Shown piece after piece: positions 32,194 to 41,216 of a stretch of 64,000 bases of DNA (position 1 is its first letter; every line of letters begins with the position of its first letter). The notes beneath the pieces were generated by a model, which was given only the letters and a program-made list of their open reading frames with translations, did no database searches and had not been told where the DNA came from. The stretch is from an uncultured archaeon (lineage in GTDB: Archaea; Thermoproteota; Nitrososphaeria; Nitrososphaerales; Gagatemarchaeaceae), in the NCBI GenBank assembly GCA_963799775.1, contig CAWCYD010000003.1:1536001-1600000 (forward strand), read 5' to 3'. Position numbers and translations under genes: made by a program.

Positions 32194-32542
32194 CTATGTC
32201 TGCGACAGATATAGTGGGTTCCCGTCTGGGCTCCTTGAAGAAGGCAAGCTTGACCGGTCCGTCGTTGGAGACCCTGCTGAAGTTGACGCCCTTGCCCTTC
32301 AGACTAGTCATGGCAGCTTCGAGGTCCGCGACCCCGAATCCAATGGAAAGGCTCTCCGAATTGCCTGGTCTTGGCCCTTTCTCGACGAGGGGGTGAAGGG
32401 CGATGGTCAGTCCTGGACACGTGACCTCGGCGAACTGGTCGGCGTGTCTCGACTTGAGCTTGAGGCCCAGCGTTTCCACGTAGAACTGGATGCTGCGCTT
32501 CATTTCTGAGATCATGACCGTGACGTTCGCTTCCGTGATCAT
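32194..32542 (-). CDS. VOC/glyoxalase family protein, frameshift near C-terminus
   Basis: SIQFYVETLGL, IGFGVADL, AFFK then shifted PDGNPL. Confidence 0.8.
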
Positions 32543-32738
32543 TAGTGGGCTTGCACAGGCTTGTGATTTAACTCCCTCCAAGGTCAAGGCAATCGTAAGT
32601 ATTCGTGCGAACAAAACGCGAAGGACGCACCAGAGATGAAGGTGAATCCTTGCTAGAATTTCGCTCAGAGACGGTGGATTTTATTTGACTCCGTGGGATG
32701 TCATCATTATATAGTTTCGACCTCGAAGCACGTGGAAC

Positions 32739-34827
32739 GTGCAAGCCGCCCCCCGGCGTGTAAGGACGATTTACAGTGTCATCGCGTCTCCCCAGAGGCT
32801 CGAGATCCTCAAAATTCTCAACGTGAAAGGCCCGCTCACCTACAGCGCGCTGAAGTCGCTGGCGGGCTTCAAGTCGAAGAAGGAGTCCGGCAAGTTCGCG
32901 TACCACCTCAGGAAGCTCGTGCGCCAGCTCCTCATCCAGCTCAACAGACAAGAGCGGAAATACACGGTCACGAACCTCGGGAGGCTGGTCCTCAACCTCA
33001 CCCGCCAAATCGAGGAGCAGTCGCTCATAGAGAGCGGCAAGCTCTACGTCAGGACGACTCGCATGGCGATGGAGGAGTTCAACGCTGACAAGATACTCCA
33101 GTCGCTGGTCAAGGAGGCAGGGATGCCGGTCGAGCTCGCGCAGAAGATAACGAGCGAGACGGAGTCCAGGCTCTACAAGTTCCAGACGCAATATCTCACG
33201 GCGCCTCTCATCAGGGAGATGGTCAACTCGCTCCTCGTCGAGCAGAACCTCGAGGAATACAGGCACAAGCTCACGAGGTTGGGGATGCCAGTCTTCGACG
33301 TGACGCAACTCCTCGCAAAGGCGGGCGCTGACGGGGGCGACGCGGAGTCCCTCCTGCACCAGACGGGCAAGTCGGTCTTCTCCGAGTACCTCCTCCTGGA
33401 GCAGCTCCCCAGGGACGTCTCGGACGCGCACCTCAACGGGGACATCTACATCGCGGAGGCCGGGACCTGGGCGCTCATCCCGGACACCATCTTCTTGGAC
33501 CTGCTCTCGGTCAGGGCCTCAGGTTTCAACCCGAAGGGGAGGCTGCCGGGCGTCCCGATGCTCCCGAGCCCAACGAACCTCGAGGAGGCGATCAACGTCA
33601 TCGCTAACATCACGCCCCTCATCAAGAAGGAGGCGAACCAGGAGATTGTCTACAGGAACTTCCTCCAATATCTGGCGCAGTTCACCCGGTCGAGGACCAA
33701 GAAGGACGTCGCGGACGCGCTCTCAAAGTTCTTCGACCAGGTCTCGGCCTCCCTCCATCCGCTGAGGAAGCCCTCGGTCACGCTGCAGCTGGACATCTAC
33801 GACAAGGACGACGCTGGCCGCGAGCTCATGGAGAAGACGCTCAGCGCCACCATGGACGCCTACAGGGAGTACATCGAGCAGGCCACCAGGCCGGAGGTGA
33901 GGTTGCTGCTGGCGAAGCCCAACAAGTCCGAGGAGTCCTCGTACCTCAAGGACGCGGCTGCGATAGTCTTCCACGGCGGGAAGGTCTCGTTCTTCCCCAC
34001 AGGCCAGAAGAGGAGCGCGCTGGGGATCAACCTAGGGGTCCTTCCCAAAGACCAGCAGAGCGACAACGTCAGCGTCCTGCACAACCTCGGCATCAACCTC
34101 CCCAGGCTCTCCTACGAGTCGAACCAGGACGAGACCTACTTCAGGGCCAAGCTCTCCATGCTGATGGGCGTGGCCGCGGACGCCCTGGTGACGAGAAGGC
34201 ACCTTCTCGAGAGGGTGATGAACAAGGGGCTGCTCCCGGCGCTCAGCTTCGGCTCGGACAGCGTCAGCTCGGAGGTGATGCCTCTGATAATGAACCTGGT
34301 CGGCCTCGACGAGGCGCTCTTCGGGCTCAACAAGGAGACGACCCTTGCGGCCAGGGCGGACCTCGCAGCGAAGATCCTCGGGACCGCGTCCCAGTCGGCG
34401 TCGGAGAAGTCCGGGCGCGGCGAGCGGCTGGGCATCGCGCTCATCGAGGAGGACGGGGCGGCGAGGCTCGCGGCCCTCGACTCGGAGAGATACGGGAGGG
34501 CGAACCTCCAGAGCCTCGAGAGGAGGGGCTACTCGCAGGCGGCGAGGCTCACGATGGATGGACCTCAACAACCCGGACGTCATGAACCACATCGGCAAGC
34601 TGGGGCAGGGTGCGACGGGAGGGCTTTCGGTCTACCTCGACGCATCGTCGCTCGACCTCAGGGGAATCTATAACCTGGCTGTGAACGCGACTCCAAGGCT
34701 GGAGTTCTTCGGGATCGAGAGGCTCGTGTCATTCTGCAGGAATTGCGGCACGAAACTTCCTGCAAAGACTGAGCGGTGCACAAAATGCAGGTCGACGGCG
34801 ACGGCCCAGTATTCGACAGTCGAGTAG
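32739..34827 (+). CDS. ArsR-type HTH + ATP-cone + class III RNR (NrdD)-like barrel + zinc ribbon; likely non-catalytic; frameshift near 34560
   Basis: QRLEILKIL...FAYHLRKL wHTH; EEFNADKILQSLVKEAG ATP-cone; DAHLNGDIYI, INLPRL NrdD-like; CRNC...CTKC; no glycyl-radical loop. Confidence 0.8.
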
Positions 34828-35136
34828 TCTCTCGGAGTCAGGCGCGCTCTTCGTCAACACATGTTGACACGCGGTTATTGGCCGCAAATCTTCGTGGGCC
34901 GAGACCTAGTATCTTCTAGGCCTCAACTCGTTTCCCCGTGTCGTCATCACTCGGTAAGCGTGAAACTCTGCGAAGTTACGGAAGTGAACGGGACCAAGCT
35001 GGCATCCAGAGGATTTAAGGGTTGGTGGGTGAAGAAATGCTTCACCACGAATTAGATAAAGCACGTCGGATGGAGAGAGCGCGCGATTTAGTGTTTGACA
35101 ACTGAGATTGAATCTTCAAAGAAGGAAGGTGGTGTG

Positions 35137-37418
35137 ATGGAGGAGCAACAGCTCCACAAGGCTGAGGTAGTGCTTCCACAGGAGACGCTTGACGCGTTCG
35201 GTGGGGACGAGCTCAGGGCGCGTGTCTTTTACGAGAAGTACGCGCTAAGAGACGAGACGGGCAAGCAGGTCGAGAAAGTCCCAAAGCAACTATGGCAGAG
35301 GGTCGCGAGCGAGCTCGCCTCGGTCGAGTCCAACGCGGAGAAGAAGCACGAGTGGACCGACAAGTTCTACTGGCTGCTTGACGACTTCAAGTTCGTCCCA
35401 GGTGGAAGGATCATGTTCGGTGCAGGTCAATCGAGAAGGTCTACGCTTCTCAACTGTTACTTCTTCAAGATCAGGGAGGACTCGATAGAGGGGATATTCG
35501 ACTGGTGCAAAGAGGCCGCGAGGACCTACAGCTTCGGCGGAGGGGTGGGAACGGACATCTCGCTGCTCAGGCCGCGGGGCACTCCCGTCAACAACTCGGC
35601 CATAGTCAGCTCCGGGTCGGTCTCCTTCATGGAGCTCCTGTCCACGACGACGGGCACGATCGGCCAAGCGGGCAGGAGGGGCGCGCTCATGATAACTATA
35701 CGCGTCGACCACCCGGACATATTCGACTTCATCAACGTGAAGAAGGGCCTGAAGAAGGTCAACTACGCGAACATCTCCGTCAAGATAACCGACGAGTTCA
35801 TGCAGGCGGTCGAGAAGGATGCCGACTTTACGCTCAGGTTCCAGAACGAGAAGGTAAAGTTCGAGAAGACGGTCCGCGCCAAGGAGATCTGGAACCAGCT
35901 GGTCAAGGCTGCGTGGCAGAGCGACGAGCCGGGTCTGATCTTCTGGGACACGATCAAGAGGGACTCCACCACGGAGTACAACGGGATGGCGGTCGAAGGC
36001 GTCAACCCGTGCAGCGAGCAGACCCTGGAGAACTATGGGTGCTGCTGCCTGGGATCGATCAACCTCAGCTCCTTCGTCAAGGACGCGTTCACGGACCGCG
36101 CCAGCATCGACTGGACGGGCCTGACGAAGGCGGCGCAGTACGCGACCAGGTTCCTCGACAACGTCCTAGACTACAACGCGGACAAGCACCCGCTCCCCCA
36201 GCAGAAGAAGGCCTCCCTATGGTCGAGGAGGGTCGGCGTCGGGACCACGGGGCTGGGAGACATGCTCATCAAGTTGGGCAAGAAGTATGACGACGAGGCG
36301 ACCGTCGAGTTCGTCGACAAGCTCTTCGAGAGGGTCACCAACATCATCTACGACTACTCCACCGACCTGGCGAAGGAGAAAGGCCCGGCCCCGGCCTTCG
36401 AGGCGAAGAAGCACCTGGCCCAGCCCTTCGTCCAGAGGCTCGACACGAAGGTCAAGGAGAAGATCAAGAGACAGGGCATAAGGAACTCGGCGATCACCAC
36501 CGTGCCCCCCGTCGGGTCGGGCTCCATATTCGTCGGGTCGTCCAGCGGCGTCGAGCCCGTCTTCGCCCTCTACTACACGAGGAGGAGCAAGTCGCTCAGC
36601 GAGGGCGAGTTCAAGGTCTGGCACCCGCTCGTCAAGGAGTACATGAGGGTCTTCCGCGTGACGGACGAGAGCAAGCTGCCGCCATACTTCGTCACCGCCC
36701 ACCAGATCAAGCCTGAGATGAGGGTGAAGATGCAGGCCGCCATCCAGAAGCACATCGACACGGCGATATCGAGCACGGTCAACCTTCCCCAGGACATCTC
36801 CGAGGAGGAGGTCGGGAAGATCTACTTCGAGGCGTGGAAGCTCGGGTGCAAGGGCATCACGGTCTACAGGGAGGGCAGCAGGGAGGGGATACTCGAGACC
36901 GCCAACGTCGACAAGAAGAAGGAGGGGGCGGTAGCGGAGCCAAAGATGGAGACGGCGACGGCCTTCGATAGGCCTAAGGTAATGACCGGAAGGGACCCTC
37001 AAGCTCAAGCTCCCGCAGGGAGGGCTCTACGTCACTGCGAACTCCGACGAGACCGGGAAGCTCAAGGAGGTCTTCGTGACGCTGGGCAAGCTTGGCGGCG
37101 ACGAGAAGGCCGACGCCGAGGCGATAGGGAGGCTAATCAGTCTCTACCTGCAGCACGGCGGCGACATCCAGAGCGTGACCAAGATGCTCAAGGGCATCCG
37201 CGGCAAGTACGTCTCGTGGGAGGAGGGGATACAGCTGCTGTCGATCCCAGACGCGGTGGCCAAGGCGCTCGAGGTCCATCACCGCCGGCAAGGTGAAGAA
37301 GGAGTCGGCGACGCCGCTCTTGCAGGGAGGCACTTGCCCCGACTGCAAGGAGAACGCCATAATCTTCGAGGCGGGATGTTACAAATGCAACGCCTGTGGC
37401 TATAGCAAGTGCGAGTAA
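35137..37418 (+). CDS. nrdJ: Class II (adenosylcobalamin-dependent) ribonucleotide reductase with TSCPD domain; frameshifts near 36995 and 37278
   Basis: TLLNCY, GGGVG, RRGA, NPCSEQ, CCLGSINL, SSTVN, KGITVYREGSR; C-terminal CPDC...GGCYKCNACGYSKC. Confidence 0.94.
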
Positions 37419-37436
37419 GAGAAGCGTGAGGGCGGG

Positions 37437-37909
37437 CTAGCTACGCTTCCCGCGTAGCTCCCTCTCCATCGCCTTCGCGAGGAGACCCCACTCCTTCGTC
37501 CTAGCTGCTGCGTCGGCTTTCGCAGTGGCAGCGAGCTGCTTCTTGCCGGGGGCCGTCTTCGGGTATGTGAGTTCGTAGCCCGTATACTCGAGCCGGGACC
37601 CGGTCCTTCGGGTATTATCCGGTAGAAGTAGAGAGAGTTCTTGTTCGGGCCGGTCAGGTGGAGGTTGAAGTAGGTAGTCCTCTCCTTGTCAGTCTTGATC
37701 AGCTTCTTCTTGGTCGTGGCCTTCCCGTTTGGGTAGAGCGTGTCCTCGAGGAGGATGGTGTCATCAGACACCCTGGTCACCTTCCTGAATCCCTTGAGGC
37801 CCATGAGGTTGTGGTCCTTTGGGTCGTAGTCGGTGCACCAGGCAAAGGCCTCGGCGGCGGGGGCGTTGAAGTGCTGAGAGAACTCGTACCTTGTGGAGAC
37901 GACTACCAA
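37437..37909 (-). CDS. SRPBCC/START-like hypothetical protein (paralogue 1), frameshifted
   Basis: QHFNAPAAEAFAWCTDYDP; shares motifs and ...AMEREL end with neighbour. Confidence 0.65.
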
Positions 37910-37918
37910 GCAGAGAAC

Positions 37919-38383
37919 CTACTTTAGCTCCCTCTCCATCGCTTTCCCCAAGTTGACCCAGATCTTGGAGTCGCCCTTCCGCTCCTCCTCGGCCAGTTTG
38001 GCGACCTCTCCTTTGGGCATCTTCTTGGGCAGGAGGAGCATCCCTGTGAACTCGAGCCTCGACCCGCCATCGTCCTCCGGGAAGAACTCGTAGACGAACT
38101 GGGAGTGGGGAGTAGGGCCCCCGATGTGGGTGTTCACGAAGGAGCGCTTCGCGTGGTCGATGCGGATGAGCCGGGTCTTGGTGACGGGCCCCTTGACGGT
38201 CTTCCTCGTGTCGTAGAGGATGATCGCGTCGTCGGTGAGCTTCTTGATCTTCCTCGTCCCCTCGAGGCCCATCCTCTTCCAGTCCGCCGGGCCTGGGTCG
38301 TAGTCTATGGCCCACGCGAAGGCCTCCTCCACGGGGACGTCGAACTTCTGGACGAACTTGTAGTTCACGCTTGAGTAGACCAT
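37919..38383 (-). CDS. SRPBCC/START-like hypothetical protein (paralogue 2)
   Basis: QKFDVPVEEAFAWAIDYDP...YEFFPEDDGGSRLEF...W..LGKAMEREL. Confidence 0.7.
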   Translation of the reverse strand: MVYSSVNYKFVQKFDVPVEEAFAWAIDYDPGPADWKRMGLEGTRKIKKLTDDAIILYDTRKTVKGPVTKTRLIRIDHAKRSFVNTHIGGPTPHSQFVYEFFPEDDGGSRLEFTGMLLLPKKMPKGEVAKLAEEERKGDSKIWVNLGKAMERELK

Positions 38384-38431: not shown

Positions 38432-38884
38432 GTGCGCCGGCTCTCCCTCGTGCTAATCGAGGAGCGAGTCGAGTTCGAGGGCGACCCCGGGGAAGTTTGG
38501 GCGAGGGTCTCCGACATAGACAGGATTCCCGAGTACTGGCACGGGACGAGGTCGCTGCAGATAGCAACGAGGGATGAAAGACAGGGAAGGGTGGTGGTCA
38601 AGGCCGGGTCGAAGTTCGCCTTTGGTGGCTCGGGCGAGGTCGAGATCACCGCCGACGACGCCTCGAAGACGCTCACGTCGAACTACACCTCAGGCCCTTT
38701 CAAGGGGGTGCAGGTCGTGAGGGTCGTGGGCAACGCCATCGAGGCCAGGTGGGAGGTGAACTTCACGGGCCTCTTCAAGCTAACTTCGGGATGGACTGGA
38801 GGCCACTTCAAGAGCGGGACTCGCCACGCTCTGGAGAGGCTTGCGGGGAAAGAGACGCCAGTGCAAAAGACGAGCGAGGCTTAA
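38432..38884 (+). CDS. SRPBCC (polyketide cyclase-like) family protein
   Basis: EVWARVSDIDRIPEYWHGT, SGPFKG, ALERL. Confidence 0.75.
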   Translation: MRRLSLVLIEERVEFEGDPGEVWARVSDIDRIPEYWHGTRSLQIATRDERQGRVVVKAGSKFAFGGSGEVEITADDASKTLTSNYTSGPFKGVQVVRVVGNAIEARWEVNFTGLFKLTSGWTGGHFKSGTRHALERLAGKETPVQKTSEA

Positions 38885-38910: not shown

Positions 38911-39165
38911 GTGAGCGCAAAGGATGAGCCCGAGCCGCAGAAGAGCCTGAAGAGGATAACCTGGCAGTCTCAGAACTGCCTCGCCTGTGTCTGGTTCAAG
39001 CCCAACGACCCGCTGAACGCTGACATCCTGGAGCGCGGGATGTGCGTCCACGCGAAGCTCAAGGAGTTCGAGCTGGTCGTCTCTGGTCGCGACTGGTGCA
39101 ACCTCTTCACGGAAATCAGGCAGAAGCAGATAGACCTGATCCAAGAGAAAGCGATGAAGGGATAG
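38911..39165 (+). CDS. Small four-Cys protein resembling HiPIP-type Fe-S proteins
   Basis: QNCLACVWF...GMC...VSGRDWCNLF. Confidence 0.55.
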   Translation: MSAKDEPEPQKSLKRITWQSQNCLACVWFKPNDPLNADILERGMCVHAKLKEFELVVSGRDWCNLFTEIRQKQIDLIQEKAMKG

Positions 39166-39171
39166 AGGCCC

Positions 39172-41216
39172 TTACTTCGCTTCTTTCACTACGTCGCTGA
39201 GCGTGTGGGTCCGGGGCCCCTTGAAGGGCGAGAAGGCCCTTCCGCCGCCGTGCAGGAACTTGGAGAAGGTCTCGACGTAGAGGAGCCTTGCGCTCTGGAT
39301 GCCAGGCTCCAAGATCCCCAGGACGAGGTTGAAGATGTGCCCGACGGCCAGGAGCACGACCCCGAAGATCGCGAAGGCTATCCCGCCGTAGACCAGGCCC
39401 GGGGCGGCGCTCGTGCCCACCGCCTGGCTGTCTATCACGAACGCTAGCACATAGGAGGCGAGGAGGATGCCCAGGAGCCTTGTGTATGAGATCACGTGGC
39501 TTACGATGGAGGGGAGCTCTATGACGGCGAGCTTGCCCTCTCCGAAGATGATGAGCCCGACGCCGACCACAGCCATCCCGATGAACACCCCGGCGACCGG
39601 GTTCTGCCCGGGGTTGACGTTGCCGTGCTTGAGGAGGGTGAGCCCGAAGAGCGAGAGGCCCCAGGCGACGGAGAGCCAGCCGACCTTCCCGAGGACGTGC
39701 TTCTTCATGTTCATCCAGTAGGCGTTGAGCATCCCGAGCACCAGGCCGAACGAGACCATGAAGAGCCCGATGTAGCCCGAGTAGAGGAGGAGCGTCTTCA
39801 GGCCCCTCGTGGAGATGGGGTTGAGGAAGACCCCGTCGGCGGGGAGGCTCGTGTGGGCGTTGGTGTTGAGCCAGTCGAAGAGATACTGGTTGACCGGGAA
39901 CCCGAAGTACGCGTTGAGCGTGAAGCCCATCACTATCCCTGCTATCGAGCCGAGGATCAGGGCCTTCGCCAGCTTCTTGAACTGGACGGGCCGGAGGATC
40001 TTCGCGACGAACGACCTCAGGAAGGCAGGGATCACCGTCTTCCTCTCGGGGTGGTTGACCCTCCTGATTATCCAGACGGCGATGAGCAGGATCAGGATGG
40101 CGTAGCCGACGTCCCCGAGCATGAGCCCGAAGAAGATCGGGAACGCGAAGGCGAATATCAAGCTCGGGTCCACCTCGTTCGACATCGGCATGGTGTAGAA
40201 GCGGATGAACGACTCGAAGAACTTCAGGCGCTTGGGGTTCTCGAGCAGGGTGGGAGGGCCTGCGTGGGCGTCGTGCTCGTCGTGGGCCTCCTGGTGAATC
40301 TCGAAGAGCCTCGTCGAGGGGGCGGTCTGTCCCAGGGCGTCCTTGAGCGCCCCCACCCGCTTGGCGGGGCACCCATCCCTCCACTGCGAAGGCGCTCTCG
40401 GTGAACCCGAAGTTGTTCAGGACCTCGAGCTGCCGGGCCTCGATGGAGAGCTGCTCCTCGACCTGCGAGATCATCGTGTAGTGCTGCTGCGAGATGGCGA
40501 GGAGCTTGGCGTCCGTGTCGGCGAGGTCGGCCTGCTTCAGCCTCCGCTCCTCCTCCAGGTTCGCGAGGGCCTGCGAGGCGGTCCCCCTGAGCGCCGGGAC
40601 CCGCGTGAGCCTCACGTCCGCCTTTTGGATCACCGAGCCGAACTTCTCCAGGCCCGCCCTCGGGACGGTGACGATGACCTTGATCGGGTCGCTCCCGGAG
40701 GAGTAGGCGACCGCGGCCTCCGCGGAGGGGAGGTTCTGGATGAGCGTGGCGTAATTGGCGGCGGGGACCGTCCCGAAGAAGGAGACGGCGGCCTCGAGGT
40801 CGAAGATGCTGAGGTTCATCCTTCACGAACTGGAGGTTCTGGACGAGGGCCACCCGGTTCGCGAGGTCGTCGAGCTGGGTCGAGAGCCTCTCCTGGTGCT
40901 CCTTGAGCTTGGAGACCTCCTGGTCGATTCCGACGGACCTCGAAGCCTCGATCACCTCTCTGAGAGAGGAGAACTTCCTCTGCCCCTTAACGGGCGTGGG
41001 GGGGAGGGCAGACTCGAGCGACCTTATCCTGAGGAGCTCCTCGGAGATCTCCTTGTTCCCGCCGACATCTGACTCGGGCCTAAGGACGGAGGCCGCTTCC
41101 TTGGACAGGGGCTCGATGTGGAGGACGCCCATGTCGTAGAGCATGGAGACCACCCGGGGCCTCTCCTCCTTGGTCCCTACTACTGCGACCTTCTGCATCT
41201 GGGCGGGCTTTAGCAT
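39172..41216 (-). CDS. atpI: A/V-type ATP synthase subunit I (a), two frameshifts
   Basis: MLKPAQMQKV, AVEGWVP, PPTLLENP, FFGLMLGDVGY, ISYTRL, RLLYVETFSKF. Confidence 0.93.

Follow-up and report, generated by a model that had tools for sequence, protein, structure and literature searches.

The gene directly upstream of nrdJ in the analysed stretch of archaeal DNA (64,000 nt, hereafter the window) is probably a transcription regulator of nrdJ that was built from a duplicated class III ribonucleotide reductase (RNR), NrdD, and that probably senses nucleotides, with binding of DNA and ligand inferred. The suggestion of an earlier note, an RNR pseudoenzyme turned into an NrdR-like regulator, gains support from the RNR gene that adjoins it in 27 of 29 relatives' loci and from a conserved, genome-unique palindrome at which we infer binding. 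The features of the locus are as follows.

32684..32704, + strand: inverted repeat TTTGAC-N10-GTCAT, candidate autoregulatory site directly upstream of the regulator TATA box
32706..32714, + strand: TATA-like box ATTATATAG about 25-33 nt before the regulator start codon, kept in aligned relatives
32739..34558, + strand: regulator coding sequence, first frame, amino acids (aa) 1 to about 606 (open reading frame and Pfam)
32769-32993, + strand: winged helix, aa 11-85 (Pfam)
33045-33260, + strand: ATP-cone-like domain, aa 103-174 (Pfam)
33351 onward, + strand: NrdD-type barrel, from aa 205 (Pfam)
34559, + strand: single frameshifting T, absent from 6 of 6 relatives and probably introduced in assembly
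34560..34827, + strand: regulator coding sequence, second frame, last 88 aa and stop; end of the barrel and zinc ribbon
34735-34788, + strand: zinc ribbon CxxC-N10-CxxC (Pfam and alignment)
34853..34868, unstranded: palindrome GTCAAC-ACAT-GTTGAC, candidate operator, conserved and genome-unique
34905-34920: palindrome CCTAG-N6-CTAGG, not conserved in relatives
35014..35020, + strand: TATA-like box TTTAAGG of nrdJ; the group A alignment has TTTAAGG, TTAGAG or TATTAAGG
35028..35046, unstranded: inverted repeat GGTGAAG-N5-CTTCACC, just after the TATA box and over the expected transcription start
35095..37418, + strand: nrdJ, class II-type RNR with a TTG start, in three frames with breaks near 37000 and 37277

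Domain architecture and predicted fold

A winged helix, an ATP-cone, an NrdD-like barrel and a zinc ribbon had been read into one protein, and all of them were recovered by Pfam, in this order from the N- to the C-terminus according to Pfam and Foldseek. The winged helix is matched by DUF7347 (aa 11-85, profile positions 4-74 of 77, 37.3 bits against a threshold of 27.6), while HTH_20 over the same residues reached 23 bits, under its cut-off of 27. The match to the ATP-cone (PF03477, aa 103-174) is only just over threshold, with 26.9 and 30.3 bits in two scans against 25.8, and other members of the HTH-fused family score 27-39 bits. NRDD covers aa 205-585 of the first frame (profile positions 12-430 of 562), and the second frame supplies positions 467-532 together with the zinc ribbon. 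Intact homologues are 694-695 aa long; one of them, the orthologue P0002 (695 aa), is about 92-93% identical to the window protein, the figure of 92% covering aa 1-612. Its AlphaFold2 model (pLDDT 90.0, pTM 0.82) places three helices and a beta wing at aa 6-77, and in a Foldseek search with this model ranks 1-36 were all class III RNRs (E 4.5e-20 to 1.9e-11, TM relative to the target up to 0.68), so that the modelled fold of P0002 is the ten-stranded alpha/beta barrel of this class.

A profile search of the genome returned the regulator as the sole ATP-cone match. The canonical nucleotide-binding start of an ATP-cone is V-x-K-R-D-G, in which K-R binds phosphate. When aligned with the cones of two class II RNRs (VKKRDG), the cones of the family begin V-R-T-(S/T)-x and thus carry T-S/T in place of K-R, a variant that is also seen in true NrdDs adjoining family members in other genomes. 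Because the match of the family profile to NrdDs in the PDB begins only at profile position 191-227, the cone stays outside that alignment and cannot be aligned to solved ATP-cones.

Dimer prediction with two copies of aa 196-695 gave a score of 0.63 (best of three controls, 0.00), above a mark that 20 of 30 proteins with a solved pair structure attain, as does 1 of 23 solved as single chains, although this pass may reflect mere likeness, since solved NrdD dimers exist. Contact agreement between runs was at least 86% and partner pLDDT at least 84, and the predicted contacts run through the N-terminal barrel helices.

Loss of catalytic residues

Alignment with true NrdDs agrees with the previous description of a dead class III RNR. 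No cysteine precedes the zinc ribbon, as had been noticed for the barrel: intact P0002 has four cysteines in total, all in the ribbon (CxxC-N10-CxxC), where the four are kept in 20 of 24 HTH-fused forms and are at least 90% conserved in a 77-sequence alignment. The active-site cysteine column is filled in 5/5 neighbouring true NrdDs and in 0/24 HTH-fused forms, and the CC columns of the finger loop, which house the thiyl-radical cysteine (T4 Cys290), in 4/5 and 1/24, respectively. The end TAQYSTVE, with its stop codon at 34825-34827, indeed falls at the position of the glycyl-radical loop, as thaumarchaeal forms stop one residue short of the radical glycine (...AQYST(V/A)E versus ...WSRITGYY of true NrdDs). 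The NrdD equivalog TIGR02487 gives 76.3 bits for the regulator, far under its cut-off of 326.35, against 517 for a neighbouring true NrdD from another genome. The NrdG activase, formerly reported as missing from the window, was searched for across the genome (81.7% complete), where no model reached its cut-off: the best matches of TIGR02491 (21.7 bits versus 126.1) and TIGR02495 (36.8 versus 131.15) fall in generic reading frames of 377-403 aa. A search of the same 81.7% complete genome found no second reductase. As both active-site cysteines, the thiyl one among them, are lost together with the glycyl-radical loop and no activase was found, the regulator is shown, as judged from its sequence, to be incapable of reducing nucleotides.

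The protein might still be an enzyme that uses non-canonical radical chemistry, given that the class III fold, the zinc ribbon and the NLPR active-site motif with its invariant Asn are retained and, according to PMC11528403, radicals can be held by relatives of glycyl-radical enzymes in which Ala, Ser or Thr replaces Gly. Against this stand the complete lack of cysteines outside the ribbon, a chain that stops ahead of the radical position and the lack of an activase above cut-off in the 81.7% complete genome, which make such activity extremely improbable and bring this explanation close to refuted already.

The downstream nrdJ gene

That nrdJ lies directly downstream and has no ATP-cone was confirmed by Pfam, which assigned Ribonuc_red_lgN, a barrel and a TSCPD tail to its product. 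No other RNR barrel gene was found in the genome (81.7% complete), so that nrdJ is presumably essential. The TTG at 35095 is conserved as MT(A/T)EIE, with ATG in a sister group, and appears from this alignment to be the more likely start, which sets the gap between the two genes at 267 nt. The positions given previously for three palindromes and a TTTAAG box in this gap hold, while its length of 300 bp does not if the TTG is the start. Upstream, the spacing between TATA box and start codon suggests that the regulator mRNA may be leaderless or near-leaderless.

Distribution, gene neighbourhood and selection

The HTH-fused gene is present in 37 of 41 relatives, intact in most of them, and in 145 of 201 genomes of the phylum. 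The earlier note had considered the family in Nitrososphaerota and next to nrdJ; this scope proved too narrow, as the family spans the phylum and has other neighbours as well. Synteny with an RNR gene directly downstream was upheld among the relatives (27/29 loci), and more widely the gene is also found beside true nrdD and pyrBI. Across the phylum, a sample of 20 loci, five of which had been picked for showing a second NrdD match, has an RNR gene alongside in seven (five true nrdD, two class II type) and pyrB/pyrI in nine, with one or the other in 14 and no nucleotide-metabolism neighbour in six. One sister family still keeps the HTH fusion next to a class II RNR that has a strong ATP-cone of its own (75 bits). 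In the phylogenetic tree, true NrdDs form one clade (support 100), the branch of which separates them from every HTH form, so that a single origin is possible.

The HTH-fused family is under strong purifying selection: over the 15 pairs of six intact orthologues, dN/dS was lowest in the winged helix (0.007), followed by the cone (0.033), the zinc tail (0.081) and the barrel (0.144). Public labels for the protein are 'anaerobic ribonucleoside-triphosphate reductase' and 'ArsR family transcriptional regulator', so the mislabelling by automated annotation that had been anticipated does occur, and the former label gives the false impression that aerobic ammonia-oxidising archaea can make dNTPs anaerobically.

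Candidate DNA sites

Footprinting upstream of nrdJ, which the earlier note had proposed, supported two of the three repeats. The palindrome GTCAAC-N4-GTTGAC is kept in 8 of 8 close relatives, with 11 of 12 arm positions invariant and all four spacer positions varying. A regulon search of the whole 2.47-Mb genome at up to one mismatch gave no second copy (about 0.15 exact matches expected by estimate). Looser TTGAC/GTCAA pairs, also considered, gave 27 and 20 matches that resemble chance. The repeat GGTGAAG-N5-CTTCACC is kept as GGTGAA-N7-TCCACC in most of the eight close relatives and differs from the GTCAAC site, while CCTAG-N6-CTAGG was rejected as a conserved element, the stretch being variable and indel-rich in relatives.

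Among 6-mers, GTCAAC/GTTGAC is shared by most sequences in the intergenic region (23/23 versus 2.65 expected) and TTTGAC/GTCAAA upstream of the regulator (19/21 versus 1.5 expected from shuffles), although these counts overstate the support because related sequences are not independent. The GTCAAC half-site thus recurs at the regulator's own promoter and is the top 6-mer in both promoter regions. The TTTGAC-N10-GTCAT repeat is nearly invariant in 7 of 7 close relatives, but cannot be separated from general promoter conservation, since its spacing differs (N10) and the whole stretch is conserved. Six of the 20 distant loci have the GTCAA half-site ahead of the gene, against about six expected by estimate, so that it is not enriched there.

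An RNA hairpin is a less likely explanation of the palindrome, as the arms are conserved in sequence with no compensatory change while the loop varies. Positions 32400-35300 match no Rfam family at E up to 1, which leaves no riboswitch or leader of a known type. About 146 nt separate the palindrome from the nrdJ TATA box downstream of it, and this distance differs from relative to relative, the intergenic region measuring 189-370 nt in 22 of 23 sequences and 618 nt in one. Such a distance is unusual for an archaeal operator and counts against this reading of the site.

Alternative roles

The genes' adjacency in 27 of 29 relatives' loci, together with an nrdJ that has no ATP-cone in a genome whose only cone found is that of the regulator, would also suit an allosteric pseudo-subunit, i.e. 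a protein partner that supplies NrdJ with the missing cone rather than controlling transcription. We regard this as unlikely, as constraint on the protein is strongest in its winged helix (dN/dS 0.007), the same fusion stands beside true nrdD and pyrBI in other lineages, and the sister family keeps it next to a class II RNR whose own ATP-cone scores 75 bits. Similarly, a DNA-binding protein with a non-transcription role, for example one coupling nucleotide status to replication, repair or chromatin, would fit a palindrome placed at a long and variable distance from the TATA box of nrdJ. This too has a low probability in our view: the palindrome is genome-unique and placed between regulator and nrdJ, which indicates a local, gene-specific role, and half-sites flank the regulator's own TATA box.

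The frameshift in the window

The regulator had been taken as a single open frame, which does not apply to the window, where it is split over two frames by an extra T at 34559. The open reading frame 32739-34673 is out of register beyond about codon 606, where the +1 frame takes over and encodes the tail. At this position, 6 of 6 relatives read ACGNNGGA-GGACC while the window reads ACGATGGATGGACC. A programmed frameshift was ruled out, as all six relatives read straight through without the T. The nearby V-ATPase subunit I gene is also split.

The T is probably an assembly or sequencing error, made likely by the two breaks in nrdJ, the sole gene of its kind. Alternatively, it may be genuine and the gene in this genome a real pseudogene, the product of which would be without its last 88 residues including the zinc ribbon. 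The T lies outside any homopolymer, and no bridging read or contig was obtained: in one sequencing run with 0.32 of the words, the identical contig ends at 34527 and none bridges 34559. On the other side, the presumably essential nrdJ has two frame breaks within 300 nt, the V-ATPase subunit is split as well, the assembly consists of 3 contigs yet is only 81.7% complete, and a split of this kind recurs in a further single-contig genome of the genus, while most fragmented assemblies keep the gene intact. A true pseudogene thus seems rather improbable.

Proposed mechanism

From NrdD the protein retains the fold together with the zinc ribbon, NLPR and the cone at the N-terminus, and it has gained an ArsR-type winged helix. 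As a transcription regulator of nrdJ, it would form an NrdD-like dimer, the two winged helices of which may bind GTCAAC-N4-GTTGAC between the regulator gene and nrdJ and also the TTGAC/GTCA half-sites flanking the regulator's own TATA box. Occupancy or oligomeric state could be set by nucleotides at the cone-like domain, at remains of the NrdD effector or substrate pockets, or at both. In this way the nucleotide pool would set how strongly nrdJ and the regulator's own gene are transcribed, by either repression or activation. Since NrdJ is without an ATP-cone and the NrdR model TIGR00244 gave no match anywhere in the 81.7% complete genome, the regulator would carry the only ATP-cone-type control of dNTP synthesis.

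A broader reading, which we hold tentatively and with somewhat less than even confidence, is that the protein is the long-missing archaeal counterpart of NrdR: ancient, phylum-wide and derived from an nrdD duplication, it may read several NTP and dNTP inputs through the effector and substrate pockets of the reductase and the cone, with the dimer switching RNR genes (nrdJ or nrdD) on or off and, in other lineages, pyrBI too, so that a radical enzyme would have been converted whole into a transcription factor of its former pathway. If true, this would be a remarkable example of an entire radical enzyme put to new use as a sensor. To our knowledge, the control of RNR genes in archaea is essentially unknown, and a conserved candidate with a defined putative DNA site makes it directly testable in cultured ammonia oxidisers.

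Comparison with known systems

Full-text literature searches returned no description of the HTH-NrdD family; the fusion may be mentioned in earlier comparative-genomics work on ATP-cones or archaeal HTH proteins. The closest parallel in function is the bacterial repressor NrdR, whose job is the one proposed for the regulator, namely nucleotide-dependent control of RNR genes and of its own gene via paired sites near RNR promoters, and which likewise has an ATP-cone-type domain and a gene adjoining RNR genes. In contrast to NrdR, which combines an N-terminal zinc ribbon and an ATP-cone in about 150 aa, the regulator has a winged helix and a whole dead NrdD body in 695 aa; the DNA-binding parts are unrelated, and its cone is without the canonical K-R. 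According to PMC9110341, NrdR is known to undergo nucleotide-dependent oligomerisation and occurs in most bacteria and only some archaea.

With NrdD, the regulator shares the fold, the C-terminal CxxC...CxxC zinc ribbon, NLPR, the N-terminal cone and the predicted dimer, but differs in having no thiyl cysteine, second active-site cysteine, glycine loop or NrdG and in its extra N-terminal winged helix. MocR/GabR (aminotransferase fold) and NrtR (Nudix fold) are known fusions of a winged helix or HTH with an enzyme-like sensor and follow the same principle, in which a catalysis-free enzyme fold serves as the ligand-sensing and dimerising body of a DNA-binding protein for the ancestor's pathway. 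The putative sensor of the regulator differs from these as a radical-enzyme scaffold of about 600 aa, and we know of no larger or mechanistically odder enzyme-derived sensor scaffold.

Gene structure and frame break

Pfam divides the product of the putative regulator gene into four parts, which are given below together with the flanking sites.

Features of the regulator gene and its flanks (window positions, or residues of the product)
32684-32714: TTTGAC-N10-GTCAT pair abutting the TATA box, in the regulator's own promoter
32739-34827, + strand: regulator gene
aa 11-85: winged helix (DUF7347/HTH_20; Pfam)
aa 103-174: ATP-cone (Pfam, 26.9 bits, barely above the 25.8 cut-off)
aa 205-585: NRDD barrel (Pfam, profile positions 12-430 of 562)
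Next reading frame of the regulator gene: final NRDD stretch (profile positions 467-532 of 562) plus zinc ribbon (Pfam)
34853-34868: palindrome GTCAAC-N4-GTTGAC in the regulator-nrdJ spacer, kept in 8/8 close sequences

The earlier note had read the regulator as one open frame and missed a break: the ORF 32739-34673 stays in the frame of its homologues only up to about codon 606, and the genuine C-terminus, ...TAQYSTVE*, is read one base further on. DNA alignment with six close relatives traced the shift to one surplus T at 34559. Among public contigs, just one near-identical sequence was found, and it stops at 34527, short of this base. Indirect evidence of several kinds speaks for an assembly error. 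The genome consists of only 3 contigs, yet is 81.7% complete; a similar split occurs in another single-contig genome of the genus, and the 695-aa gene is unbroken in most of the fragmented assemblies. Furthermore, nrdJ (35095-37418), the one RNR barrel gene of class I/II type that the genome yielded, occupies three frames over its final 400 nt, breaking near 37000 and again near 37277, and is intact in two relatives (open frames of 775 and 819 aa), which points to indel errors in the assembly. The V-type ATPase subunit I gene (39116-40819, - strand) was counted likewise, as it is apparently split into overlapping ORFs, 39172-40356 and 39116-40819, with the V_ATPase_I match coming from the former only, probably through another frameshift. 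As the break in the window copy looks like an assembly error, P0002, an intact 695-aa orthologue (93% identical in one comparison, 92% over aa 1-612 in another), was used in its place for folds and searches.

Just downstream of nrdJ, two tandem - strand genes free of Pfam matches, 37400-37909 (apparently frameshifted) and 37919-38383, face an SRPBCC/polyketide-cyclase-like gene at 38432-38884.

Loss of catalysis on a retained fold

Judged by its residues, the regulator has lost catalysis. P0002 contains four cysteines, all within the C-terminal CxxC-N10-CxxC ribbon, in line with the barrel devoid of cysteine described in the earlier note. An alignment to true NrdDs, comprising 24 HTH-fused forms and five true NrdDs adjoining such forms in other genomes, revealed one cysteine column filled in 5/5 true NrdDs vs 0/24 fusions, while the finger-loop Cys-Cys is filled in 4/5 vs 1/24. 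The glycyl-radical loop is indeed missing, since thaumarchaeal regulators stop at ...QYST(A/V)E opposite the enzymes' ...WSRITGYY, one residue short of the radical glycine. The NrdD equivalog model scores the regulator at 76 bits against a cut-off of 326. The absence of NrdG, noted earlier for the window, extends to the genome (81.7% complete), where no hit to the NrdG models reached the cut-off.

The predicted fold is nevertheless that of a class III RNR: the AlphaFold2 model of P0002 (pLDDT 90.0, pTM 0.82) retrieved class III reductases throughout Foldseek ranks 1-36, with E-values from 4.5e-20 to 1.9e-11.

Some distant fusions retain the C-terminal tail, two of them with the glycine (L016h, L017h) and none with the cysteines. 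These two, at L016:5446-7713 and L017:4334-6610, are HTH-fused forms of 756-759 aa with the entire tail and glycine at the radical position (TRIYGRY, TKVFGKI), and may represent an intermediate stage of decay. At another locus, a full-scoring NrdD with active-site cysteines (L004:4179-6083, - strand) adjoins an HTH form and reads ...FSRSIAFY..., with alanine where glycine is expected; an alignment shift is also possible, and the aminoacyl-radical enzymes of PMC11528403 serve as a comparison.

Selective constraint

Across 15 pairs among six intact orthologues (dS ~0.6), dN/dS was lowest in the winged helix (0.007), followed by the cone (0.033), the zinc tail (0.081) and the barrel (0.144). These substitution patterns show a protein under strong constraint and no relic. 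In a 77-sequence alignment, invariant or near-invariant sites cluster in four regions: the winged helix and the cone, the opening helices of the barrel, and the NLPR motif, whose N453 is invariant. The four zinc-ribbon cysteines are likewise retained.

Distribution and gene neighbourhood

Winged-helix-bearing homologues were detected in 145/201 sampled genomes of the phylum (69/94 genera), and in 37/41 relatives. The positional link to nrdJ proposed earlier holds well beyond the window, as an RNR gene lies directly downstream on the same strand in 27/29 relatives' loci; gene order thus shows the regulator to be linked to RNR genes. Among 20 phylum-wide loci, a true nrdD lies beside the fusion in 5, an RNR of class II type bearing a strong ATP-cone in 2, pyrB/pyrI in 9, RNR or pyrB/pyrI in 14 and neither in 6, rates that are biased because five of these loci were picked for a second NrdD hit on the same contig. 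A quick tree placed the five true NrdDs in one clade (support 100) with every fusion on the opposite side, which is compatible with a single origin, and the fusion may thus have arisen once. The protein described in PMC10684826 may be the Sulfolobales member of the family.

Conserved sites around the regulator gene

Alignment of relatives shows GTCAAC-N4-GTTGAC to be a conserved palindromic site: across eight sequences, 11/12 arm positions are invariant, all spacer positions vary and the surrounding stretch is poorly conserved. A sister group carries TTGAC-N5-GTCAA(T)-N4-GTTCAC. An unbiased count ranked GTCAAC/GTTGAC as the top-shared 6-mer of the spacer (23/23 vs 2.65 expected from shuffles) and put TTTGAC first among 6-mers upstream of the regulator (19/21 vs 1.5 expected), both counts being inflated by the relatedness of the sequences. 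With one mismatch allowed, the palindrome has a single match in the 2.47-Mb genome, which argues for a local regulator. Of the three palindromes listed in the earlier note, this first one is real and conserved, and the third (35028-35046, after the TTTAAG box) is kept as GGTGAA-N7-TCCACC, unrelated in sequence to the GTCAAC site; the second (34905-34920) showed no conservation among relatives and was dropped. Translation of nrdJ most probably begins at the conserved TTG at 35095.

In a distant lineage where the fusion is followed by glutaredoxin and a true nrdD, the region upstream of the HTH form (L023:4870-5070) holds a perfect palindrome, AGTCAA-N6-TTGACT, directly before a TATA-like AATTATAAAA; its half-site core equals that of the window. 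In a sister-family genome (L009), a ~30-nt element (ATTTATTTGGGTTCTAT..GATCTAAAA) occurs twice within the 330 nt that follow the HTH form, on the low-coordinate side of 5915, between the regulator and a class II RNR gene; each of the two TATA boxes has GATCAA-type motifs beside it, and the site there looks unlike GTCAAC.

Proposed mechanism

We propose that a regulator dimer would contact the palindrome with both of its winged helices, with an activity set by nucleotides. Complex prediction on a pair of aa 196-695 chains gave a score of 0.63 (best of 3 controls, 0.00), passing a mark reached by 20/30 solved pairs vs 1/23 single chains; runs agreed in at least 86% of contacts, with partner pLDDT of at least 84. 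The existence of solved NrdD dimers may account for this pass.

The least secure part of this proposal is nucleotide sensing: the cone lacks the canonical K-R, replaced by T-S/T, and no alignment was obtained between the family's cone and those of solved NrdDs. In canonical ATP-cones the K-R has a role in phosphate binding. Nevertheless, the cone ranks second among the domains in constraint, and the T-S/T variant is common to the true NrdDs adjoining fusions in other genomes. Pfam detects no ATP-cone in nrdJ, as noted earlier, and the regulator is the sole ATP-cone match in the genome, in which no NrdR was found.

Comparison with known systems

No description of the fusion family turned up in the full-text searches, although older papers may mention it. 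The regulator shares its proposed job with NrdR, but falls outside the NrdR family by its winged-helix N-terminus and by the NrdR model TIGR00244, which matches nothing in the genome; it descends from NrdD, yet is no NrdD by the catalytic tests. Other regulators are likewise built from a winged helix joined to a dead enzyme body.
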